Shown in pieces: positions 41,134 through 58,131 of a DNA stretch of 64,000 nt; within the stretch, counting starts at the first letter, position 1; each line of letters opens with the position of its first letter. A program made the position numbers and the translations under genes. The stretch is taken from positions 10,614-74,613 of the forward strand of contig JANOAN010000003.1 in assembly GCA_031411135.1 (NCBI GenBank), written 5' to 3'. The notes beneath the pieces were generated by a model that saw only the letters and a list, made by a program, of their open reading frames with translations, did no database searches and had not been told where the DNA came from. This DNA is from a bacterium. GTDB taxonomy: Bacteria; Patescibacteriota; Minisyncoccia; Phycocordibacterales; CAIZLB01.

Positions 41134-41652
41134 ATGGAGGAAATACAAAATAACTTTTTAGAGGCATACAATACCTACTCGGACTCTATCTTCCGATTCT
41201 GTCTTTTTAAGTTGAGCGATCGGGAAATTGCAAAAGATTTTATGCAAGACACTTTCACCAAAACTTGGATGCTAGTTTCGAAGAAAAAAGTAGAGATTAA
41301 GAGTCTCAAAGCCATTCTTTACAAGATAGCCGGAAATTTGATTATCGATGAATACAGGCGACGAGGAAGACGCGGACTAGCAGCGTCACTCGACGTCCTC
41401 CACGAAGAAGGATTCGACCTTTATTGTGACGAAACATCTTCCATGATGGACCATATGGATGGAAAAAAGGCAGTCTCATTAATCTCAAAAATCCAAGAAC
41501 CGTATGGCGAGGCAGTATTCATGCGATACGTTCAGGGATTGGAGCTCGACGAAATGGCAGAGATTACTGGGGCTTCCGAAAACACCATGTCAGTGAGGGT
41601 GCACAGAGGAATTTCAATACTAAAAAAACTTTTTAATAAAGAAAATGAGTAA
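41134..41652 (+). CDS. ECF-type RNA polymerase sigma-70 family factor
   Basis: Region 2 (FMQDTFTKTW, IAGNLIIDEYRRR) and a region 4 HTH (LDEMAEITGASENTMSVRVHRG). Confidence 0.8.
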   Translation: MEEIQNNFLEAYNTYSDSIFRFCLFKLSDREIAKDFMQDTFTKTWMLVSKKKVEIKSLKAILYKIAGNLIIDEYRRRGRRGLAASLDVLHEEGFDLYCDETSSMMDHMDGKKAVSLISKIQEPYGEAVFMRYVQGLELDEMAEITGASENTMSVRVHRGISILKKLFNKENE

Positions 41653-42802
41653 AAACAATCAAAACAATCAAATACAGGATCACGAAATGCATGAAGATAT
41701 TCATAAGCTTTTTTCTATAGCCAAAGAGGAGTCGCTTTCTCATGATGAAAAAAAACAAGGGGCGATAGATTTTAAGAACTTTATGGAAAAAAATCCAAAC
41801 AGAGGTGTTTCAATGGTAAGTCCTTATATAAAAAATCTTTTCATTAGCACTTTCAAATTTGTTAAACAGCGACAATTAGTAGCTATAGCCTTAGCGGTGA
41901 TTTTGGTATTAGGAGGATCTAGTGGGACTGCGTATGCAGCGGTCAATTCCCTCCCGGGAGATTTGCTTTACCCGATAAAGATCAATATTAATGAAAAACT
42001 TGAAAGTGTTTTAGCTAGAGGCACAGAAGCCAAGGCGCGAGTTGCTGTAAAGCATGCCATAAATCGAATAGAGGAGGTTGAAAAATTGGCGGTTGCCGGT
42101 AAACTAGAAAAATCGAGTGAGGGTTCTGTTTCTGCCACTTTGGCTTTACAGTCAAAAGTAGTTCAGGAGAATATCTTAAAACTTAAAACAGAGGGAAATG
42201 TAGAAGCGGCAATAGTTATCAGCTCAGATTTTGAAAATTCATTGAATGATCATAAAAAGAATTTGGCAAATCTAGTTAAGAACAGTAGGGACACCGCGAG
42301 GGACCTTTTGGTAAAGACTAGTGAAAATATACATGACAATATATTAGCTGCCGCGAAGGAACGCTTGATACTTGAGGACAGTCTTTCAACATCAAACCAA
42401 ATCACTGTCAATAAAAAAATTGCCAATGACGAATTAATTGCTTCTCAGAAAAAAATTAAGAAAATCGAGGGTGCTGTTAATGCATCTCGCAACATAGATA
42501 AAGATATAAAAGATACTTTGAAAAATGCTGTGAAAACTGTTTCTGAAAGCGAAGAGAAGATAAATGTAGGGGCATACAACAATGCAGTTGTCTTACTCAA
42601 AGACGCCAAGGAGAATACCGATAAGCTGGAGGAGGAATTTAAGAAATCACCCATCGATTATTCAAAATCTGGTAAGACGCCCATACCTACAAGCACTGCA
42701 ACCCCCACTTCTTCAACTTCAGTGGATGGTAGTAGCAGTTCCACAATTAATATTCAAAATAATAACTTACCCATCCCCGTTCCATCAGTTCCTAGATTGT
42801 GA
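41645..42802 (+). CDS. putative anti-sigma / membrane-anchored coiled-coil protein
   Basis: Overlaps the sigma gene stop. Has one TM helix (LVAIALAVILVLGGSSGTAYA), a long helical ectodomain and an S/T/P-rich tail. Confidence 0.45.
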   Translation: MSKNNQNNQIQDHEMHEDIHKLFSIAKEESLSHDEKKQGAIDFKNFMEKNPNRGVSMVSPYIKNLFISTFKFVKQRQLVAIALAVILVLGGSSGTAYAAVNSLPGDLLYPIKININEKLESVLARGTEAKARVAVKHAINRIEEVEKLAVAGKLEKSSEGSVSATLALQSKVVQENILKLKTEGNVEAAIVISSDFENSLNDHKKNLANLVKNSRDTARDLLVKTSENIHDNILAAAKERLILEDSLSTSNQITVNKKIANDELIASQKKIKKIEGAVNASRNIDKDIKDTLKNAVKTVSESEEKINVGAYNNAVVLLKDAKENTDKLEEEFKKSPIDYSKSGKTPIPTSTATPTSSTSVDGSSSSTINIQNNNLPIPVPSVPRL

Positions 42803-48723: not shown

Positions 48724-48798
48724 GCTCTCGTCGTTCAATGGATAGGACGTAACTTTGCGGAAGTTATGATACAGGTTCGATTCCTGTCGAGAGCACCA
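48724..48798 (+). tRNA. tRNA-Arg (anticodon GCG) with encoded CCA
   Basis: Acceptor GCTCTCG/CGAGAGC, anticodon stem-loop TAACT-TTGCGGA-AGTTA, T-arm ACAGG-TTCGATT-CCTGT, and a 3' ACCA. Confidence 0.8.
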
Positions 48799-48870: not shown

Positions 48871-50268
48871 CTAACTTTTAGGAAGGATACCTTCTTTTTG
48901 CTGTTTTTGATTGGGCTGACTTACAGGAGGTGTGTCTTTCAACAGCTCATCTGATTCAGTCTTATCAACAGATATCTTTCCATCTTTCAAAATCAATTTG
49001 CTTTTCAGGTTTACTAAAACATGACGTTGTTCGTAAATGTTGCCATCTTTCAGGAGAAACTTCATATATTTTTTGATATCAATATCTCCTAATTCCTTAC
49101 TCTCAAATCCACCTGGATCACCGATGACATCTCTGTGAAAACGATACATTCGATTTACATCCATATCCATCTGTCCTCGTACGCCGAGTTCGTTAATGGA
49201 TAATTCATCAACTATCTCACAGAGTGATTTTATGAGATCCTCCTCACGGATATATGTCATAGGACAATGATGATCTTTTGTCCTTGAACAACCATAATAG
49301 ACGTATCTCATAATAGTTCCGTCTTTCAAAGCTTTAAACTTTTCTTCAGCAGTAACACTTGAACCACAGAGTCCGCATTTAATTAAATGTGTGTAAGCAA
49401 AATCTTTTTTGTAAATCCGTGTCGCTCGTTTTTTCTTCTTCATTTCTTCTCGCACTTTATCAAAAAGTTCCTTTGTGATGAGTGGTTTATGTACACCATG
49501 GTACCAATTACCGCTTTTCTTAGGGTACTCAAACATGCCGTAATAAAAAGTTCTAGTGAGAGCTAGTTGTACACCACTTAATGCAATATGTTTTCCGTTT
49601 GGTGATCTAAAGTCTAGTTCATCAGTAAGCCAATCTCGTATACGATGTTGACTCCAACCCTCGGACGCTTTTTCAAACATCATTTGGACTATGTGTGCTC
49701 GAACTGGATCTATCTTCACAATACCTCGATTACCTTTCTCTCCAACATTCGTGTATCCCAAAGGTGCAACCCCTGGCCACAACCCTTTTTCTACAAGAGT
49801 TCTCAAACCTCTTTTTACATTTATACCTTTAGTATCATTTTCAAGTTTTGCTTGTGATCCAAGAATCATGAGTAGAAATTTCTCGTTAGGTGAGTTAGAA
49901 AAGTTTTGATTATATGTCCTGATTTCTAAAAGTTGCTTACTATCCATAAGATCAATCAGTCTACCTAGATCACCTGCATTTCGGCTAAGTCTATCTGGAT
50001 GCCACGTAAGGATTGCATTGTATTTTCCAGCCTTTATCTCGTCGATCATTTTATTAAAAACTTCACGCTCACCAGAATTTTTAGCTGAGTGGGCTTCAGT
50101 TTTTACTGTCACTACTGAAAGATGATCTCGTTCGGCAAGTTTATTCATCTCACTTATCTGAGATTCAATTGACAAAGCTTGTCGTTCTTCGTCCTCGCTA
50201 GATTTTCTGGCGTAGAGGCAGTAGATGAGGGCTGGAGATGGCACTTCTTTTACAGCAGAGTTTTCCAT
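48871..50268 (-). CDS. large serine recombinase (resolvase/invertase N-domain + recombinase + zinc-ribbon)
   Basis: YARKSSEDE catalytic Ser region, PDRLSRN, a recombinase domain, and a Cys cluster (CGLCGS...YYGCSRTKDHHC). Confidence 0.85.
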   Translation of the reverse strand: MENSAVKEVPSPALIYCLYARKSSEDEERQALSIESQISEMNKLAERDHLSVVTVKTEAHSAKNSGEREVFNKMIDEIKAGKYNAILTWHPDRLSRNAGDLGRLIDLMDSKQLLEIRTYNQNFSNSPNEKFLLMILGSQAKLENDTKGINVKRGLRTLVEKGLWPGVAPLGYTNVGEKGNRGIVKIDPVRAHIVQMMFEKASEGWSQHRIRDWLTDELDFRSPNGKHIALSGVQLALTRTFYYGMFEYPKKSGNWYHGVHKPLITKELFDKVREEMKKKKRATRIYKKDFAYTHLIKCGLCGSSVTAEEKFKALKDGTIMRYVYYGCSRTKDHHCPMTYIREEDLIKSLCEIVDELSINELGVRGQMDMDVNRMYRFHRDVIGDPGGFESKELGDIDIKKYMKFLLKDGNIYEQRHVLVNLKSKLILKDGKISVDKTESDELLKDTPPVSQPNQKQQKEGILPKS

Positions 50269-50309
50269 AACTCATATTTTAATAAAAATACAGATGGAAA
50301 TCTAGATAT

Positions 50310-51629
50310 TTATTCCATCATCAGCTTCTTATCCTTCAGCAATATTCTACTCTTAATACAACTTAGCACTTCTCGCTTCTGCAACATCGTCCCGTGCTGA
50401 AGCATATGCTTTGCAAATGTTTTGATTGATACGTCTTTGTGCTTCTTCGATTGCCCTAGATCCACCCCAAGCACTCCAGTCTGGAAAAGTGCATATCGTG
50501 CCACTTCTTCTTGAAGCTTCTGCTTCAGTTCTGATTTATCCATGCTCATCTTGTCTATTATCGGTAACATCTCTGATATCAATATATCCTCTTTCACTGA
50601 CTCGTTCGGACAGTCTCGATCCTTCAATTTGGTGCACCTGTAGTAGACATGAGCGTTGAAACCACCATCCTTCAATTCCTTGATCTTCTCCTCTGCTGTT
50701 ATGCCCGATTCGCAGTAGGCACAGTGGAGCATTCTGGTGAAGGCAAACTCTCTGCCGTAGGCTTTTTTCTTCTCAACCCTGATTTTGTCCTGCACCAGAT
50801 CGAAAAGTTCCTTGGTGATGATCGGTGTATGCTTGCCTGTATACCAGTCACCGCTTCCAACAGGATATTCAAACACTCCGTAGTAGAAGGTCAGCCTTAA
50901 TATTCGGTAGATATTACCTAATGTCATCGGCTTGTTGCCTCTTGTTACAAATTTCACATCTTTGAGCCACCTATATATCTTCCTACCAGAGTAGTTTTCA
51001 GTGGCTACTTTTTCAAATATTTCTTTTATGAGTGGTGCTCTTACGGGATCAACTTCCACCTGACACTTTTTATCCACATTTTTGCTGTTTAGGTATCCAG
51101 TTGGTGCTGTGCATGGCCAGAGTCCCATCTGGCATCTTGCCCTTAGGCCTCGCTTCACATTTACCACCTTATTGTCGTTCTCAAGCTTTGCCTGTGATCC
51201 TAGAATCATGAGCATAAATTTCTCATTCGGCGTGTTGCTGAACTTTTGTCCATAGGTGCGTATCTCATGAAGCTTCTTCTGATCCATCAAGTCTACGATT
51301 CTTCCAAGATCACCTGCGTTTCGTGCAATTCTATCAGGTGCCCACGTCAGTATTCCATTGAACTTACCCTGATTGATCTCATTCACGATTTCGTTGAACA
51401 CTGGTCGTTGCCCCGCTTCCTTGGCAGAATGCGACTCTTGTTTTCTTGCCACAATCTCTAATCCCTCATTAATCGCCATCTTCTCCATTTCCCGTATCTG
51501 GCTATCAATGGAGAGTACCTGCTTATCCTCCTGTTCTGTACTTTTCCTTGCGTAAAGCACGTATTTAACCCTTACAGGGATTGATATTTTGGCCTCCATC
51601 CCCACTGGCCTTTGTATTGTATGATCCAT
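50310..51629 (-). CDS. large serine recombinase, paralog of 48871..50268
   Basis: YARKSTEQE, PDRIARN, and a Cys cluster (CAYCES...YYRCTKLKDRDC). The start may be the second Met (MEAKIS, 51599), which aligns better with the paralog's N-terminus. Confidence 0.85.
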   Translation of the reverse strand: MDHTIQRPVGMEAKISIPVRVKYVLYARKSTEQEDKQVLSIDSQIREMEKMAINEGLEIVARKQESHSAKEAGQRPVFNEIVNEINQGKFNGILTWAPDRIARNAGDLGRIVDLMDQKKLHEIRTYGQKFSNTPNEKFMLMILGSQAKLENDNKVVNVKRGLRARCQMGLWPCTAPTGYLNSKNVDKKCQVEVDPVRAPLIKEIFEKVATENYSGRKIYRWLKDVKFVTRGNKPMTLGNIYRILRLTFYYGVFEYPVGSGDWYTGKHTPIITKELFDLVQDKIRVEKKKAYGREFAFTRMLHCAYCESGITAEEKIKELKDGGFNAHVYYRCTKLKDRDCPNESVKEDILISEMLPIIDKMSMDKSELKQKLQEEVARYALFQTGVLGVDLGQSKKHKDVSIKTFAKHMLQHGTMLQKREVLSCIKSRILLKDKKLMME

Positions 51630-51633
51630 ACCT

Positions 51634-51683
51634 ACATTGATGACAGAGACCCTCCGAGGAGTCTAGGAGGGGTCAGTTGGTAA
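51634..51683. repeat. 50-bp intergenic repeat, copy A
   Basis: ACATTGATGACAGAGACCCTCCGAGGAGTCTAGGAGGGGTCAGTTGGTAA. About 40 of 50 positions are identical to copy B by hand alignment, and the differences cluster in a central ~10 bp. Confidence 0.8.
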
Positions 51684-52022
51684 CTAATTTCGCTCAATCT
51701 CTGATTTTTTGCTCAATCCTTTCTCTTTAAAAAACCCGTCTATCATTTTTACGTTACCTTTCGCTCCAACGTGCCAGATGTTAACTTCGTTAACTGGAAT
51801 GATTTCTTTGTAATCGTAAATTGTTACCACTGTAGGCTTTTTATGTTTTGTTTTGAAAGACCATTCGACACGCACCTTTCCATCGCTAGATTTCCACCTT
51901 TCATCAGTAACTCTGTCGTTGGGTTTACCTAGACAACTGACAAGATGCTCGTATGAAGAAATGGTATATCCACTGAAACTTGAGCCGTTTATATCCTTTG
52001 GTTCTGCTTTGATGAATTTCAT
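51684..52022 (-). CDS. hypothetical protein
   Basis: A 112 aa ORF lying exactly between repeat copies A and B. No family recognised. Confidence 0.5.
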   Translation of the reverse strand: MKFIKAEPKDINGSSFSGYTISSYEHLVSCLGKPNDRVTDERWKSSDGKVRVEWSFKTKHKKPTVVTIYDYKEIIPVNEVNIWHVGAKGNVKMIDGFFKEKGLSKKSEIERN

Positions 52023-52082
52023 ATGTTTTTTGCTTGTTAATTCGGCCTACGTCAGAGTCACTTGTAGCGGGTTTTCACAAAC

Positions 52083-52132
52083 ACATTGATGACGCAGACC
52101 ACTTAGGAAGTCTAGGAGGGGTGAGTTGGTAA
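52083..52132. repeat. 50-bp intergenic repeat, copy B
   Basis: ACATTGATGACGCAGACCACTTAGGAAGTCTAGGAGGGGTGAGTTGGTAA. It follows a 21-nt module (52050..52070) that recurs at 57981..58000. Confidence 0.8.
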
Positions 52133-52149
52133 TTTTTAGCCTTAAAAAC

Positions 52150-52179
52150 TTAGTAAATAGGCAATTTTTATGGTATAAT
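52150..52179 (+). promoter_or_regulatory. promoter of the KAP NTPase gene (extended -10)
   Basis: TTAGTA, an 18 nt spacer, then TGgTATAAT. The -10 ends 9 nt before the ATG at 52189, which implies a leaderless or near-leaderless mRNA. Confidence 0.45.
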
Positions 52180-52188
52180 GTTGTCATC

Positions 52189-54897
52189 ATGTCAGAAGAC
52201 GAGCAAGATAAAATCAGCAAATGGGACACGCCTTCCAAGAAGGACATGTTCGGCCGTGAGCCGTTTGTAGATACGATAGTAAAAACAATCCAATCGTCTC
52301 AAGAAGGCTTTAACTTGGGTGTCTCTGCTCGATGGGGAGAAGGTAAATCATCAATCTTAGAACAGCTCCAGCCAAAACTAGAAGAGTTGAATTACAAAGT
52401 CTTAACTTTTTCTCCTTGGAAATATACACAGGACAATATATCAATTAAAAGAAAGTTTATAATCGATATCTACTCCCAACTTGGAGAGGATTATGATGAT
52501 ACTGAACTATACAGTTCAACAGAAAGTCAGAAAGAACTAAAAATTGATGCTTACGATAGTATATTTTTTAATAGACTCGGAATTTTTATTCGCTACGGCC
52601 TAACGGTATCTATTTTATTTTTGGCAGTTCTTTTTATTATAAAGTATTGGTTTGGATTTACAATAAATATTACACAGACTTTTTCCACCAATTTATTTAT
52701 TCCTATACTTGCAGCACTTTTACCCATTGTCACAAAAATTACAGAAGTGACGGTAAAACATACAACCCCAAAAATAGAATCTGCCGAGCAATTTGAAAAA
52801 AGATTTAATGACGTTATAAACGGAATAATGGGCACCCATAAATCGCCGGGGAAAATAATCATTTTTGTCGATGATCTTGATCGATGCAATCATGTTGAAG
52901 TTGAACAGATACTTACAGCTTTATTTACATTTTTCAACAATAAGCATTGTACTTATGTGATTACAGCTGATCACACTGTTATTCGAAGATATATAAGTAG
53001 TTTCTTAAAGCTAGAAAACGATCTTAAAGATGATGGAACGGTAGATATGAAAAAGACAGAAGAGACTAGACAAAAAGAGGCGACGGAATATTTAAAAAAG
53101 ATTTTTCAGATTAACTTTATTGTTCCAAGGATACCTAGTGATCTACTTGAACCTTGGATAAGTGACCTACTGAAGGCCAGTCCTGTTATTGAGTTCAAGA
53201 ACCATTACGCAAAAGATTATTTAGTAAACCTCATACTTAATAATTTTCAGGGCAATCCCAGAAAGATAAAGCACTTTATTCGAACTTTAGCATTCCAATT
53301 AGAAGCAATTAATGAAAAAATCCAATGTCTTGCGGATCAAAAGGTAGATGAGAGTAAAAACCTCAACAAGGTTAAGGATTCTCCAGAGCTTTTAGCAAAA
53401 ATACTCATTCTCCAAGATAGGTTCCCTAACTTTTACGAGAAGATCGTATTAGAGCCAAAGCTTTTACAAAGACGTGAAGCTGGCGAGATGGATGAAGACA
53501 AAGAATTACAGAACCTTCTTGCTCAAGAGCCAAAATTCTTTAATTCGCTGACTCGTAATTCTACTCTGAAGACTATCGACCCTTATTACTTCCTGTACTT
53601 CTCAGGATCGACTGGCTTCGTGGAAACTGCTGTAGTCGACCCAGCGGAGGTCAAGGCTCTTGCAAGAAGTGCAGACTTTGACGGACTCACAAAAATAATT
53701 CGAGGTTTGACCGATGAGCCGAGAAACATGCAAGTTGAACATATAAAGCTTGAATTTGATTCTCCACAAATACAACCACCTGAAAAAGTAAATATTGTAA
53801 GAAGTCTTTTCCATACAGTTACTTTAATAGAAGAACCCAGCCTCAGACTCCAAAAGCTTAAAGAAATTCTTGATAATAAGACAAAGTACAAGCTTGAATT
53901 TGCATCCTTGCAGTCGGTTGATTTTGGAAACTTTATAACTTTTGCAGATATTGATGTAATAAACAAACTTTTTGTAGGTACTCCTTTCACAGATATTGCA
54001 ATGCAGACTCAAATTCTTAGTGCATTTATAAGCAAGCAAGATGAAATAAAAAATGTTGATGTTCTAAAAAAGTTTATTCAAGTTATTGCCACTGGCATTT
54101 CTAAGAACGATGCCAATTCTCAATCTTATCTAATATTGGCAAAAAAGATAAGTGATAAAAACTTTCTTGATGCAGATACGCTTCAGAATAGTTTGATTGA
54201 AACATATAAAAAGGCTCCCGATCCTTTAAAACAGGAACTTTTTGATACATTGCTTGATATTAAACCAAAGTTATCTGCACCAAAGCAACAGGAATTTGAA
54301 GAGATAATTCTAGCTGTTATTGAAAAAGACCCTATCGCCGAAAGTCTTGCGATGATTGGCAATATTCCTGTGAAGATTAATAAATCTAAATTAAGTATGT
54401 CGAAAGTCACTTCAGTAGTGAACAAAAGAATTTCTAGTTCAACAGATGTTGAAATTGCTCAGCTTGCAAATATTATGCTTCATCAAGCTATAAAAGATGA
54501 GCTTGGTCCAGATAATACAGAGCTAACACTCATTACTCTGGTCGAATTACTTGATTCTAAGGATCAACCAACGATAGCACTCATAAGAGGACGCCTTCCT
54601 GAATTCATAACTCATTCGACTAATAAGTCAAAGTTGCTAGATCAAGTATTGAAATCTGTAGAAACTGGCCCCCTTACGGAAAGTGCTCAAACGATGGATA
54701 CCTTGAAGAGCATGGATGATTTCTGGAACACCAATCCTTTTTTAAAAAAGGAACTTGTATCTAAATTGAAAGCTTCTTTGAAATGGATCGTGGATAAGGA
54801 TATAAAAAGTTTAGTAACAAAAAGTTTGGGAGAACTCGATCCTCCTCCTGAGCCCAAGAAGAAAAAAGAGTCCACTGAGCCTGCACCAGATAAATAA
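52189..54897 (+). CDS. KAP-family P-loop NTPase
   Basis: Walker A ARWGEGKSS, then two hydrophobic helices inserted into the NTPase domain (LGIFIRYGLTVSILFLAVLFII, LFIPILAALLPIV), then Walker B IIIFVDDLDRC. This insertion is the defining KAP architecture. I moved the start to MSEDEQDK. Confidence 0.75.
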   Translation: MSEDEQDKISKWDTPSKKDMFGREPFVDTIVKTIQSSQEGFNLGVSARWGEGKSSILEQLQPKLEELNYKVLTFSPWKYTQDNISIKRKFIIDIYSQLGEDYDDTELYSSTESQKELKIDAYDSIFFNRLGIFIRYGLTVSILFLAVLFIIKYWFGFTINITQTFSTNLFIPILAALLPIVTKITEVTVKHTTPKIESAEQFEKRFNDVINGIMGTHKSPGKIIIFVDDLDRCNHVEVEQILTALFTFFNNKHCTYVITADHTVIRRYISSFLKLENDLKDDGTVDMKKTEETRQKEATEYLKKIFQINFIVPRIPSDLLEPWISDLLKASPVIEFKNHYAKDYLVNLILNNFQGNPRKIKHFIRTLAFQLEAINEKIQCLADQKVDESKNLNKVKDSPELLAKILILQDRFPNFYEKIVLEPKLLQRREAGEMDEDKELQNLLAQEPKFFNSLTRNSTLKTIDPYYFLYFSGSTGFVETAVVDPAEVKALARSADFDGLTKIIRGLTDEPRNMQVEHIKLEFDSPQIQPPEKVNIVRSLFHTVTLIEEPSLRLQKLKEILDNKTKYKLEFASLQSVDFGNFITFADIDVINKLFVGTPFTDIAMQTQILSAFISKQDEIKNVDVLKKFIQVIATGISKNDANSQSYLILAKKISDKNFLDADTLQNSLIETYKKAPDPLKQELFDTLLDIKPKLSAPKQQEFEEIILAVIEKDPIAESLAMIGNIPVKINKSKLSMSKVTSVVNKRISSSTDVEIAQLANIMLHQAIKDELGPDNTELTLITLVELLDSKDQPTIALIRGRLPEFITHSTNKSKLLDQVLKSVETGPLTESAQTMDTLKSMDDFWNTNPFLKKELVSKLKASLKWIVDKDIKSLVTKSLGELDPPPEPKKKKESTEPAPDK

Positions 54898-54956
54898 TCA
54901 AATGTTGGCAACCCATGCTTCGCAAGTCTATATTTTTAAGCTAAGATTCTTCTAAC

Positions 54957-55778
54957 ATGGCAAAGAAAATTTTGACTAACATAAAACAAAAACCTCACTT
55001 CTCTCACAGGGATTTTGTTCTGTATCTTGGCAATTCAACCGATATCCTCAATGAGCTTCCAGAAAATTCCATAGATATGATTTTTGCAGATCCTCCATAC
55101 ATGCTTTCAAACGGAGGATTCACTGTTCATGCAGGAAAGATGGTAAGTGTTGATAAAGGAGACTGGGACAAAAGCAAAGGATTTGATAGCGACTACTCAT
55201 TTCATAGAAAATGGCTAGAGGCCTGCTATCGAGTCCTCAAACCCCAAGGAACCATTTGGGTTAGTGGAACATATCATTCAATCTATCAATGTGGTCACGC
55301 TATTCAGTCTATCGGTTTTCATATTCTCAATGATATAAGTTGGTTCAAGCCGAACGCTTCGCCGAATTTAAGCTGTAGGTTTTTTACAGCCAGTCACGAG
55401 ACATTGCTCTGGGCTAGGAAACATAAAAAAGCAAAGCACACGTTCAATTATGAATTGATGAAAGGTGGAGAATGGTCTGAAGATTTTATTAAAAAACCAA
55501 ATCTACAGATGCGTTCTGTATGGGCAATTAATCCACCCAAAAAAGAAGAGAAAAAATTTACCAAGCATCCGACACAAAAACCACTTTCACTTCTAGAGAG
55601 GATTGTTCTCGCAAGTACAAACAAAGGAGATATAATCCTTGATCCTTTTACCGGTAGTTCCACAACAGGAATCGCTGCTAAAAAACACGGACGAAAGTTT
55701 ATCGGTATTGATACTGAGGAGAAATACTTAGCTCTTTCTCAAAAACGCTTTCAAGATTTAGTCGAGGCTGGTAATTGA
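54957..55778 (+). CDS. beta-class N6A/N4C DNA methyltransferase
   Basis: Motif IV IFADPPY lies near the N-terminus and motif I DPFTGSSTTG near the C-terminus, which is the beta permutation. Confidence 0.85.
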   Translation: MAKKILTNIKQKPHFSHRDFVLYLGNSTDILNELPENSIDMIFADPPYMLSNGGFTVHAGKMVSVDKGDWDKSKGFDSDYSFHRKWLEACYRVLKPQGTIWVSGTYHSIYQCGHAIQSIGFHILNDISWFKPNASPNLSCRFFTASHETLLWARKHKKAKHTFNYELMKGGEWSEDFIKKPNLQMRSVWAINPPKKEEKKFTKHPTQKPLSLLERIVLASTNKGDIILDPFTGSSTTGIAAKKHGRKFIGIDTEEKYLALSQKRFQDLVEAGN

Positions 55779-56616
55779 CTATTACTACTTCGGATATCTT
55801 TCCTCTCTTGTCAGATTTTGAATTAATCATTCGGCTAGCATATACAGGAATCTGCTTATAGCCAGAATATATTTCCTTAATGAATGGTGCACTAGAATTA
55901 CTAAGCATTACATATACGCCCTTTTTATCTAGCTCGATAAATAAATCTCTAAGCTTTATTTGATCATCCTTAGAGAAACTATCTTTACTATAACTTGTAA
56001 ATGATGATGTCTCTGATAAAGGATGGTACGGGGGGTCGAAGTATACAAAGTCTCCAGCCTTAGCATTTTTCACAGCATCAGCAAAGGATCCACTAGTAAT
56101 TTTTGTATGAGAAAGCATCTCAGATACAAGTTTTAGGTTTTCTTCGTCCACAATCTTTGGATTCGTATAGCTTCCCATAGGAACATTAAATCCACCCTTT
56201 GAGTTTTCTCTATAGACACCATTGAAGGCTGTCTTGTTTAGAAAAAGAAAGTATAGACTCTTTTTGAAATCGTCAGCAGGGAGTGAATTATACTTTTCTC
56301 TGATTGAGTAATAAAACTCTTTTCTTTCTTCTGTATTTTTTGATATAAAATCTTTCTCAATTTTTCTTAAAGACTTAATCAATTCGCCAACATTATCTTT
56401 GATGTTTTTATAGGTTTGAACTAGAGTCTTGTTCACATCGTTTATGTGAGCCTTCTTTGGATTCAATGCAAAGAATACCGCACCTCCACCGATAAACGGT
56501 TCAAAATACGAATTGTACTTTTGGGGAAAGAGAGCATCTAACTGTGTCAAAAGCTGGGTCTTACCCCCAACCCATTTAAGGAACGGCTTAGCTTTCTTAG
56601 AAATATCTATCTTCAT
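55699..56616 (-). CDS. Dam-family (alpha-class) DNA adenine methyltransferase
   Basis: LKWVGGKTQLL, motif I FEPFIGGGAVFF and motif IV YFDPPY, in alpha order. Its 3' end overlaps the convergent methyltransferase gene by 80 nt. Confidence 0.85.
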   Translation of the reverse strand: MKIDISKKAKPFLKWVGGKTQLLTQLDALFPQKYNSYFEPFIGGGAVFFALNPKKAHINDVNKTLVQTYKNIKDNVGELIKSLRKIEKDFISKNTEERKEFYYSIREKYNSLPADDFKKSLYFLFLNKTAFNGVYRENSKGGFNVPMGSYTNPKIVDEENLKLVSEMLSHTKITSGSFADAVKNAKAGDFVYFDPPYHPLSETSSFTSYSKDSFSKDDQIKLRDLFIELDKKGVYVMLSNSSAPFIKEIYSGYKQIPVYASRMINSKSDKRGKISEVVIVNYQPRLNLESVFEKELSISPQYQYR

Positions 56617-56696
56617 GTATTGATTTTATCATTTTTTGATACCGATTCCTATCTTTCATTGTTCTAAGCCCTATTTTGTGATTTAATTGCATTATT

Positions 56697-57230
56697 ATGA
56701 AAGTCGGAGGTATCGGAGGAACAAACACAAAGTCGGGGCTACACTTTGAAGGAAAGGTGGATTTTCTCGAGGCCCTCAAAATAGTAAAGGGCTATGAAAT
56801 AAAGGATGACGGGTCTATCCTTTTCGAAGGTAAGGTTGTAGCTCTCAATCTCCGAAAATACAAGCTCTACGAATTTCTAGAAAGTAAAGGTGTTAATCAC
56901 AAAGAAATACTTTCAAAACGTCTTCTCCCTGATGATGCTATCTTGGTACTCAACACGAATTCATTTTACGTAATTGAAATTAAATTCCAACAGGTTGCTG
57001 GTTCTGTGGACGAAAAATTGCAGACATGCCATTTCAAAAAGAGACAGTACGAAAAATTGATGAATTCACTCGGTGTAAAAGTGGAATATATCTACATCTT
57101 AAGTGACTGGTTCCAAGCTCCTGCGTACAAGGATGTTCTCGCTTACATTAAAGAGGTTGATTGCGATTATTTCTTCGAAGAAATAACTCTAAACCGTCTC
57201 GGGCTCCCATCTCCAACAGAGACTATCTAA
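56697..57230 (+). CDS. small PD-(D/E)XK nuclease-like protein, candidate restriction endonuclease
   Basis: LLPDDAILVLNTNSFYVIEIKFQQ gives PD...x13...E-I-K. Divergently paired with the Dam-like methyltransferase, 80 nt apart. Confidence 0.45.
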   Translation: MKVGGIGGTNTKSGLHFEGKVDFLEALKIVKGYEIKDDGSILFEGKVVALNLRKYKLYEFLESKGVNHKEILSKRLLPDDAILVLNTNSFYVIEIKFQQVAGSVDEKLQTCHFKKRQYEKLMNSLGVKVEYIYILSDWFQAPAYKDVLAYIKEVDCDYFFEEITLNRLGLPSPTETI

Positions 57231-57846
57231 ATCCTGGCATTGCTGATTGAAGTACTTCTGTATAGTGTTTCTTGTCGTCGATATAATCTCTAAGCGTAAG
57301 TAGTAGGTTTTTAAACATATAAGCCTCGGTATAAATCTTTTCATTCTTGCAGAAAAGTTCAATCATTATCGCAACGTAATCTAAAGACAGGGTGTAATCC
57401 TGCTCAATGTGTGCATACTTTTGTGTAATCTCATCAACGGTTTCAAGTTTATAGTTATTCCTATCTTCAACCGATGCGAAAGGCGTAGTTCTCTCATAAA
57501 AATCAATGTAGTACTGAACTATCTCTCGAACGTCTTTGCGATACTGAGGGATTTTCAGAAGAAGATCGACAACCCAAAATGTATGAGTCGGCGGTGTCAT
57601 TATTTTGTTCACTCCTGGCACGAGAATTTTTACTACGAAATCAATATCTGGTCTTGCACCTCTACTTCCTTGAAATAGACCAATCAAAGTTCCGTCTTTT
57701 GTGACATATGTCTTAAAAGCAGTTAGACGAGGTCTCAGTTGAGCGAGATTAGTTCCATCATAATATCTAGAGTTGTATTCGTGTGACATTACAGAAAGTA
57801 TAGCAAAAGCTAGGCTGTTGGTAACTAGAGCTTCGCAACCCTCCAT
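57223..57846 (-). CDS. hypothetical protein (last cargo gene of the cassette)
   Basis: A 207 aa ORF with no recognised family. It has a 285 nt upstream region carrying repeat module C. Confidence 0.45.
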   Translation of the reverse strand: MEGCEALVTNSLAFAILSVMSHEYNSRYYDGTNLAQLRPRLTAFKTYVTKDGTLIGLFQGSRGARPDIDFVVKILVPGVNKIMTPPTHTFWVVDLLLKIPQYRKDVREIVQYYIDFYERTTPFASVEDRNNYKLETVDEITQKYAHIEQDYTLSLDYVAIMIELFCKNEKIYTEAYMFKNLLLTLRDYIDDKKHYTEVLQSAMPGFR

Positions 57847-57951
57847 ATCTAAGCTAAGGTACAGACAGATACCTCAGTTTTTGGTATCATGGTAATCACA
57901 ACAAAGACCTAACCCCTAGAAAACCCTTAGTTTCCTAGGATATGGTCGTAA

Positions 57952-58131
57952 TAAAAACCGCTACAGTATAGAAGACTCCTCGTCAGAGTCACTGTAGCGG
58001 TCGCGTCTAGGAAACTGGATGTGGGTTGAGCCGAAAGGTTCGATCACAATGGCGAGGGGTCTTCTGTCTCAAGGCTCAAAACTCCTCGCCACTTATTATT
58101 AGTTAATAAGCTTAAACCGCTACAGTGGCTT
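57952..58131. promoter_or_regulatory. structured intergenic element with three mutually exclusive 11-nt pairing segments
   Basis: ACCGCTACAGT at 57957..57967 and again at 58116..58126, with its exact complement ACTGTAGCGGT at 57991..58001. Also an internal GAGCC-GAAA-GGUUC hairpin (58028..58041), GGCGAGG/CCUCGCC (58051..57 / 58084..90) and TTGAGCC/GGCTCAA (58026..32 / 58073..79). The strand of action is unresolved. Confidence 0.4.

Follow-up and report, generated by a model that had tools for sequence, protein, structure and literature searches.

Analysis of the window, by which we mean the whole stretch of 64,000 nucleotides of DNA, revealed that two 50-bp direct repeats flanking a small gene upstream of a pair of serine recombinase genes belong to a motif family that is strongly conserved upstream of homologues of the nearer recombinase, as was learned from the search for further copies in related DNA that an earlier note on the window had proposed. 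We give roughly even chances to the reading that each repeat is a DNA-level promoter/operator module of this clade of large serine recombinases (LSRs) and their small partner genes in Parcubacteria-type bacteria and proviruses.

The repeats, copy A (51634..51683) and copy B (52083..52132), both lying on the minus strand, were found to be real and located where the earlier note had placed them, and its hand count of 40 matches in 50 positions (80% identity) was confirmed. A degenerate pattern derived from the two copies had exactly two matches in the window, namely both repeats, and none in 100 dinucleotide-preserving shuffles. Copy A occupies the gap between the TAG stop codon of a 112-aa ORF (51684..52022, minus strand) and the ATG of the recombinase 2 gene (position 51629), ending 4 nt short of the latter, and copy B sits between the 112-aa ORF and the divergent gene for a KAP-family P-loop NTPase, the first cargo gene (52189..54897, plus strand; ATG at 52189), in agreement with the earlier description. 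The 112-aa ORF had no match in Pfam, PHROG or NCBIfam, and the KAP gene has its own extended −10 element (TGgTATAAT) between copy B and its ATG, the hexamer ending 9 nt before the ATG. Recombinase 2 (50310..51629, minus strand), whose gene is the one tied to the motif throughout the family, is an LSR with Resolvase, Recombinase and Zn_ribbon_recom domains. Its paralogue, recombinase 1 (48871..50268, minus strand), has the same three domains and is 48% identical to it; the gene lies 41 nt downstream of that of recombinase 2, has no motif of its own and is probably co-transcribed with it. The recombinases were at most 28% identical to phage integrases, with SPbeta integrase as the best PDB match (E 5e-8); they are distant from the characterised ones.

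On the strand of the gene, the motif reads in the order (A)GTTACCAAC box, a first variable spacer (var1), CTRGAC, a second variable spacer of 12 nt (var2), TTGCGKCAT (the B box) and the start codon. In copy A (nhmmer E 4.7e-5), upstream of recombinase 2, these elements correspond to the box TTACCAAC (51676-51683), the preceding AG of which overlaps the TAG stop codon of the 112-aa ORF, var1 (51667-51675), CTAGAC (51661-51666), the 12-nt var2 (51649-51660), the B box CTCTGTCAT (51640-51648) and a tail, CAATGT (51634-51639), with the ATG of recombinase 2 located 10 nt after the CAT. In copy B (nhmmer E 1.3e-5), upstream of the 112-aa ORF, they are the box TTACCAAC (52125-52132), var1 (52116-52124), CTAGAC (52110-52115), var2 (52098-52109), the B box CTGCGTCAT (52089-52097) and the tail (52083-52088), all on the minus strand as in copy A. 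Neither the box nor the B box was enriched elsewhere in the window. The picture of conserved arms around a variable centre given earlier holds in part: the arms are the box plus CTAGAC on one side and the B box on the other, and the centre is var2 together with a few differences in var1 and the B box, but there are in fact two variable spacers, var1 and var2, with the invariant CTAGAC between them. As to the symmetry that had been described, AGAC-N10-GTCT is present in both copies, whereas the CCCTCC/GGAGGG complementarity is confined to copy A, and neither is kept across the wider family, in which the CT of the window is replaced by TT in most relatives and the spacers are free to vary.

When 80 metagenome loci were fetched by the recombinase protein alone, without use of the motif, it was found within 130 nt upstream of the recombinase 2 homologue in 73 of the 78 evaluable loci, as scored with a profile made from these sites, and it was kept upstream of recombinases with only 55-60% protein identity. 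An exact scan with the right arm located the motif in five Nomurabacteria/Parcubacteria genome contigs, each time directly upstream of a homologue of recombinase 2 of about 440 aa. Approximately 14 IMG/VR viral contigs also carry it, the recombinase of one of them being closer to recombinase 1 (54% identical), and an exact scan of viral sequences with the 19-mer of the window itself gave no match. Among 109 matches of the nhmmer profile, 92 were followed by an LSR homologue, the others being mis-called starts, chance pattern matches or small partner genes. The motif was seen only at LSR genes and their partner genes, and not at other genes in the window or in the flanks. The earlier note had allowed for the repeats being simply a duplicated promoter region without conservation elsewhere; they do resemble a duplicated promoter-type region, but one that is strongly conserved outside the window.

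Comparison of the family sites showed that one or two upstream (A)GTTACCAAC boxes are present in direct orientation, and that the CT[G/A/T]GAC block is invariant, its CTTGAC form being seen in only 3 loci. For var1, lengths of 8-10 nt were seen, with 19-21 nt in sites whose proximal box has decayed and only 2-3 nt before some partner genes, whereas the length of var2 is fixed at 12 nt (rarely 11) with a free sequence. The downstream block, TTGCG[T/G]CAT, is 9 nt long. The distance from its CAT to the start codon was 10-14 nt in 52 of 72 unique loci, and a Shine-Dalgarno (SD)-like sequence was present in only 2 of 54 loci with such short leaders; a second tight mode, at 43-52 nt after the CAT, belongs to a subfamily with a leader of about 48 nt that contains a conserved GGTCGA block. 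Upstream (5′) of the box, neither sequence conservation across the family nor a conserved sigma-70 promoter was found, and in several loci only 55-70 nt separate the box from the start of a divergent gene.

Two unrelated types of small gene located upstream of the recombinases carry the motif, the 112-aa type of the window and a type of 106-113 aa. Homologues of the 112-aa ORF number only 3, not counting itself, and the arrangement motif-ORF-motif-recombinase was observed in all 3 contexts fetched for them (two homologues; loci L086-L088), with only the 3′ (B-box) end of the upstream copy being present on the contig of L087. More than 170 homologues of the 106-113-aa type occur in candidate-phyla-radiation (CPR) bacteria, and all 9 loci of this family that were read (L009, L038 and L144-L150) had the order motif (CAGCGTCAT variant), partner, motif (TTGCGTCAT), recombinase, sometimes with an opposite-strand gene inserted; its GTG start lies 10 nt after the CAT, matching the spacing at the recombinases. 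Two direct copies were therefore seen in the window, L009, L038, L086, L088 and L144-L150, and most loci have a single copy. AlphaFold models of the partner proteins were unusable for the 112-aa protein (pLDDT 47) and all-helical at modest confidence for the 110-aa family (pLDDT 66), the latter giving no match to PDB at E<4. It could be argued that the second copy is a by-product of acquisition of the 112-aa gene, for example through recombination, illegitimate or homologous, with a related element, and has no function at that gene, since copy B retains the ancestral leader up to CATCAATGTGT, as found before LSR genes in L007-L009, and a 6-codon GTG mini-ORF resembling a relic start lies 10 nt after its CAT. 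However, L086 and L088 preserve the blocks of copy B despite divergence of both var1 and var2, and in all contexts read the unrelated partner family was preceded by a copy of its own, which has a distinct B-box variant. Since two unrelated families of partner genes both conserve the second copy, a functionless duplication is very unlikely.

Among the roles suggested in the earlier note, that of operators for a shared regulator came closest to the evidence, given the fixed orientation, the fixed distances to start codons and the blocks separated by a free spacer of fixed length. In the promoter/operator reading, CTRGAC and TTGCGKCAT would correspond to the −35-like and −10-like elements of a promoter distinct from the housekeeping sigma-70 type, and the 1-2 upstream (A)GTTACCAAC direct repeats would serve as operator or activator boxes. 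Transcription would start a few nucleotides after the CAT, so that the leader would be very short and lack a Shine-Dalgarno sequence, and the start region would tend to fold into a hairpin. Copy B would then drive the 112-aa partner gene and copy A, as an internal promoter, would do so for recombinase 2 and also, through read-through transcription, for recombinase 1, such that the two units may be regulated alike yet independently, as are xis and int. Consistent with this reading, the motif is asymmetric, is always oriented towards the gene and has its B box at the place expected of a −10 element when the leader is very short. No sigma-70-type promoter for the minus-strand operon was predicted between copy B and the KAP gene, and a scan with the TTGACA-N16-18-TATAAT consensus revealed no site at either copy and no TATAAT-like hexamer at the right spacing; a sigma-54 geometry was rejected on account of wrong spacing.

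Promoters read by ECF sigma factors have a −35 AAC and a −10 CGT(C) about 16-17 bp apart, and those of sigma-32 have CTTGAA-N13-17-CCCCAT. The blocks of the motif, with their GAC-N15-CGTC, may resemble the ECF arrangement, AAC-N16/17-CGT, and also the sigma-32 CTTGAA...CCCCAT. The window contains a gene for an ECF-type sigma factor (41134-41652) with an anti-sigma-like neighbour, the pair spanning 41134-42802. The region upstream of this sigma gene contains GGCAAT-N16-CGTCTTA, with the CGTC 7 nt before the ATG, and this putative promoter is unlike the motif in sequence and 3 bp longer in geometry. Because the −10 of the KAP gene ends 9 nt, and the CGTC of the sigma gene 7 nt, before the respective ATG, short or absent leaders seem normal in this genome. 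The presence of a host ECF-type sigma with its anti-sigma-like neighbour makes it feasible that a sigma factor reads the motif, the ECF sigma itself being only a candidate reader. Several observations count against the promoter/operator reading. The restriction of the motif to LSR and partner genes is equally compatible with a sigma regulon and with a site that the recombinase itself reads; the ECF sigma gene of the window has no motif, though a different sigma could still be the reader; and the −35-like element contains GAC, not the AAC typical of ECF promoters. Since the distance from the box to CTRGAC is 2-3, 8-10 or 19-21 nt, there is no single rigid geometry for an activator. In addition, the start-region hairpin described below often includes the CAU and the next few nucleotides, and a CAU in a co-varying hairpin implies that those bases are transcribed, which is a poor fit with a start 6-7 nt after the CAT.

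The repeats had also been proposed to be ribozymes or intercistronic RNA processing elements, and this proposal found no backing in an Rfam match, a consensus structure or covariation in a fixed register. The Rfam scan that had been suggested yielded no family at the repeats at gathering thresholds, and at E≤10 only two matches to snoRNA models (E>6) were obtained in the region 51500-52300. In an anchored gap-free alignment of 68 sites in fixed register, Watson-Crick covariation was absent from all column pairs, RNAalifold returned an empty consensus for the core on both strands, and mean folding z-scores were about −0.5 on both strands. Folded singly, the copies did no better than shuffles on either strand, except for the minus strand of copy A (z −1.8), the helix of which is absent from copy B and was thus rejected as a shared structure. 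Other candidate pairings were likewise discarded: CCCCUC/GAGGGG between var1 and var2 occurs in one subclade only and fails in copy B, in copy B of L088 and in most others; the copy A helices CCCCUC/GGAGGG and AGAC/GUCU are lost in copy B, L088 and most relatives; and GGACGCU-UGCGUC is confined to one subclade. Hidden coding was also considered and dismissed, since the reading frame that runs from the B-box TTG to the ATG is not conserved and, on the opposite strand, an ORF beginning at ATGACG stops after 8 codons in the window; a derivation of the box from a tRNA D-loop (AGTTGGTA on the plus strand) was abandoned for want of a D-stem. Because the blocks are invariant and the spacer is rigid in length and free in sequence, with no RNA structure, the core of the motif appears to behave like a bipartite protein-binding DNA site.

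At the downstream side of the core, the CAT and the following 11 nt paired better with their own next 56 nt than with those of other loci in permutations (−8.33 vs −7.48 kcal/mol, z −3.8, p 4e-4), an effect that is modest and not strand-specific, the energies being alike for sense and antisense (−8.33 vs −8.11). Many of the predicted hairpins enclose the AUG or SD and contain CAU, the complement of AUG; that of the window, UGUA.GUAUG-GAU-CAUAC..UACA (51613..51636, minus strand), is predicted to enclose the AUG of recombinase 2 and has counterparts in relatives, with varying registers. These hairpins, their co-variation with the CAT region, the tightly fixed distance between B box and start codon and the intercistronic position of copy A, with no terminator ahead of it, would be in line with an RNA element of the 5′-UTR or intercistronic region, the single-stranded blocks of which are bound by a protein or the ribosome and which, together with the start-codon hairpin, would govern how the recombinase and partner mRNAs are translated or processed, or how stable they are. 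We regard both the element and its supposed mode of action as quite unlikely, considering that the stretch from the box to the CAT lacks a consensus structure or covariation on either strand, that folding z-scores are weak and equal between strands, that the hairpin energy is nearly the same in sense and antisense, that an Rfam family was not matched at E≤10, that DNA sites, not RNA motifs, typically have invariant blocks set apart by an unpaired spacer of constant length but free sequence, and that there is little room for a separate upstream promoter where a divergent gene starts about 55-70 nt from the box.

The remaining proposal, that the repeats are recombination sites of the adjacent serine recombinases, was examined against the layout of the islands. 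Integrases of islands at tRNA genes usually read towards the attachment site. Of 70 loci, 25 had a tRNA gene no more than 2.5 kb past the stop codon of the recombinase gene, 12 of them within 300 nt, and in all 25 cases the 3′ end of the tRNA gene faces the 3′ end of the recombinase gene, i.e., on the side opposite to the motif. In the window, a tRNA-Arg(GCG) gene (48724..48798, plus strand) has its 3′ end facing that of recombinase 1 at a distance of 72 nt, and the tRNA-Arg side is likely the integration side of the island. The motif would be internal to the island, between recombinase and cargo, and is unlikely to be attL or attR, since the nearby tRNA genes lie on the far side of the recombinase gene. 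A second copy of the tRNA 3′ end that might serve as the far att site was not found in the window, nor was a conserved or related site found after the recombinase stop codon. The att site of an LSR is a 40-50 bp imperfect inverted repeat with a central crossover dinucleotide and symmetric outer motifs for the zinc-ribbon domain. A dyad scan of 68 aligned sites gave a best centre with 0.42 complementarity within ±12 bp against a background of 0.25, due mainly to GAC/GTC, and the signal dropped to 0.30 within ±22 bp, with symmetric outer motifs being absent. The att-site proposal is thus not supported, the motif being mostly single-copy, conserved over recombinases of 55-60% identity, weak in dyad symmetry and on the other side from the tRNA.

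A broader form of this proposal is that the motif is read by the adjacent serine recombinase as a recombination, accessory or autoregulatory site, in which case two direct copies would let the small gene be deleted or re-inserted as a cassette and single copies would serve module exchange or autoregulation. The cargo of the window consists of the KAP NTPase and R-M systems, and that upstream of the motif is unrelated between loci (type I R-M, copper resistance, HicAB, acetyltransferases, helicase). Between loci with 80-90% identical LSR DNA, the homology sets in within the motif and extends as far as the stop codon of the LSR gene or its terminator, with entirely different cargo upstream. The left breakpoint falls 5′ of the distal box, 5′ of CTRGAC (L035/L036, L040/L048 and L086/L088) or 5′ of the B box (L047/L031); in L086 compared with the window and L088, it falls exactly at the 5′ edge of the CTAGAC of copy B. 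From sequence comparison, these variable breakpoints look like mosaic exchange anchored on short conserved blocks, not like crossover at one dinucleotide. The almost exclusive tie of the motif to this LSR clade and its partner genes, the direct copies that bracket a gene in the window, L038, L009, L086-L088 and L144-L150, the start of homology within the motif, the precise position of the L086 break and the weak GAC...GTC dyad all favour a site read by the recombinase. On the other hand, known LSR att sites are much more symmetric than this dyad, which fails to extend into the outer positions; one fixed crossover dinucleotide, instead of three breakpoint positions, would be expected from a serine recombinase; and most loci have one copy, with no arrays of more than two in the window or in the loci of 8-14 kb. 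A related site beyond the LSR stop codon is lacking, the tRNA lies across the LSR gene from the motif in every one of the 25 cases, and strict orientation with a fixed distance to the start codon is not expected of a pure recombination site. On balance, we consider both the site and the cassette behaviour unlikely. It would be a long shot, less probable again, that this recombinase clade uses the motif as a modular recombination site, crossing over in or beside CTRGAC, at which modules immediately upstream of the recombinase gene (the small partner gene, perhaps whole blocks of defence or resistance cargo) are captured, excised and swapped while the site doubles as their promoter, forming a serine-recombinase counterpart of the integron platform.

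Compared with known systems, the motif shares with ECF/group 4 or sigma-32 promoters two short asymmetric blocks, a rigid spacer of free sequence and orientation towards the gene, as well as a CGTC-containing block at the −10 position relative to start codons without SD. It differs from alternative-sigma promoters in that its upstream block is CTRGAC instead of GGAAC/AAC and its downstream block is as long as 9 nt (TTGCGKCAT); the GAC-to-CGT spacing is 15, compared with the 16-17 of ECF promoters, and the CGTC is invariant in the motif. Unlike the situation with autoregulated ECF sigma factors, the sigma gene of the window is without the motif, and no regulon beyond recombinase and partner genes was seen. 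The res site of Tn3/gamma-delta, which serves as recombination site and operator at once, is likewise a conserved multi-block site directly upstream of a serine recombinase gene; by analogy, direct repeats would support deletion, and recombination and autoregulation could be combined. However, res subsites are inverted repeats of a 9-bp consensus, whereas the blocks of the motif are asymmetric with weak symmetry, and the enzymes studied here are LSRs, which normally use simple attP/attB without accessory sites, most of the elements having one copy. With the xis-int arrangement of lambda-type phages, in which int has a promoter of its own beside or inside xis, together with direct repeats for an activator, the motif loci have in common a small gene immediately upstream of the integrase gene, each with its own copy of a control region, an integrase transcribed towards the attachment side, and direct-repeat boxes upstream of a −35-like block; the differences are that the recombinase is of the serine instead of the tyrosine type and that no similarity of the partner proteins to Xis or known RDFs was detected. 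Integron attI/attC and SCCmec ccrAB similarly have a site adjoining the recombinase gene, a gene bracketed by direct copies and variable cargo beyond, and the tandem recombinase genes recall ccrA-ccrB of SCCmec. In contrast to integrons, which use a tyrosine recombinase and have arrays of cassettes that each end in a foldable site, the enzymes here are of the serine type, cassette arrays are absent (two copies at most) and no single-strand hairpin structure is present; in contrast to both systems, the breakpoints are not at one position and the bracketed gene points towards the recombinase.

A search of the literature on the blocks and on serine recombinases in CPR bacteria found nothing relevant. 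The specific motif appears to be previously undescribed and unusually well conserved across a large uncultured clade; as a kind of element, it is ordinary, for it amounts to a control region dedicated to an integrase gene and its partner and placed ahead of them. Widespread in CPR bacteria, the recombinases of this clade lie at the edge of islands with defence and resistance cargo, and a conserved control module provides a handle on when such islands are expressed and move, as well as a mark by which the recombinase-plus-partner unit can be recognised in metagenomes. Should the motif prove to be a recombination site, it would explain the very fast turnover of cargo beside these genes. If it is read by an alternative sigma factor, it would be among the few defined regulatory motifs in these uncultured organisms and would link the mobility of the islands to the stress response.

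Window positions 48871-51629 contain a tandem pair of genes for large serine recombinases, 48% identical to each other and separated by 41 nt, and the same layout was found in a related locus, L009. The control motif that precedes recombinase and partner genes was located before the upstream gene of the tandem only, and the arrangement in the window and L009 is reminiscent of ccrA-ccrB. On a predicted viral contig of 32.5 kb from IMG/VR (L126 and L141 are this one contig), two units of motif plus recombinase point the same way at a distance of about 22 kb, each with a 694-nt segment upstream, the two segments being 87% identical.

One family of partner genes encodes conserved, predicted all-helical proteins of 106-113 aa, with more than 170 members in Parcubacteria, for which no Pfam domain was found. 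In all nine loci read (L009, L038 and L144-L150), the partner gene (for example, 4001-4333 of L146) was directly 5' of a large serine recombinase gene and had its own copy of the motif. The partner protein is a candidate for the role of recombination directionality factor or of regulator.

Downstream of copy B, the motif copy that precedes the 112-aa gene, a mini-ORF of 6 codons (GTG AAA ACC CGC TAC AAG TGA, 52058-52078, minus strand) was noticed, with its GTG exactly 10 nt past the CAT of copy B, the start position of recombinase and partner genes at other loci. In the contexts read for homologues of the 112-aa gene, the mini-ORF was retained in two (L087 and L088) and absent from L086; it may therefore represent a vestigial start or encode a leader peptide. 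The leader of the 112-aa gene also contains CCGCTACAAGTGACTCTGACG (52047-52068, minus strand), in which a 20-nt stretch corresponds, with one 1-nt indel, to the antisense of the 3' arm (57980-57999) of the long hairpin of a LOOT RNA (57906-58045, plus strand; Rfam RF03000, 52.7 bits). Hence the LOOT RNA and this mRNA leader are complementary over about 20 nt; either a common origin or regulation in trans by an antisense mechanism could account for this.

The cargo adjoining copy B (52189-57846) comprises the KAP NTPase gene, two ORFs resembling DNA methyltransferases (54957-55778 and 55699-56616) and small ORFs nearby, and it looks like a defence island; the Pfam check within this cargo covered the KAP gene only. 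Near the far end of the block, just before the LOOT RNA, a 207-aa ORF (57223-57846) contains, 20 nt into the ORF, the third perfect AGTTACCAAC in the window (57817-57826, minus strand). Since about 0.12 such matches are expected by chance, this one is probably a coincidence.

Elsewhere in the window, an ECF-type sigma factor gene (41134-41652, plus strand), whose product passes the TIGR02937 cut-off, is adjoined by a gene for a DUF5667 membrane protein (41645-42802, plus strand), which looks like the cognate anti-sigma factor. Upstream of the sigma gene, GGCAAT-N16-CGTCTTA stops 4 nt short of the ATG and resembles an ECF promoter under autoregulation, from which the mRNA would be leaderless.

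A tRNA gene was present no more than 2.5 kb from the recombinase stop codon in 25 of the 70 related loci, and the window itself has a tRNA-Arg gene at 48724-48798. The 3' end of the tRNA gene was toward the 3' end of the recombinase gene in every one of these 25 loci, while the tRNA identity was variously Arg, Ser, Gln, Gly, Leu, Lys or Asp. Therefore, this recombinase clade appears to target the 3' ends of tRNA genes of many different identities.
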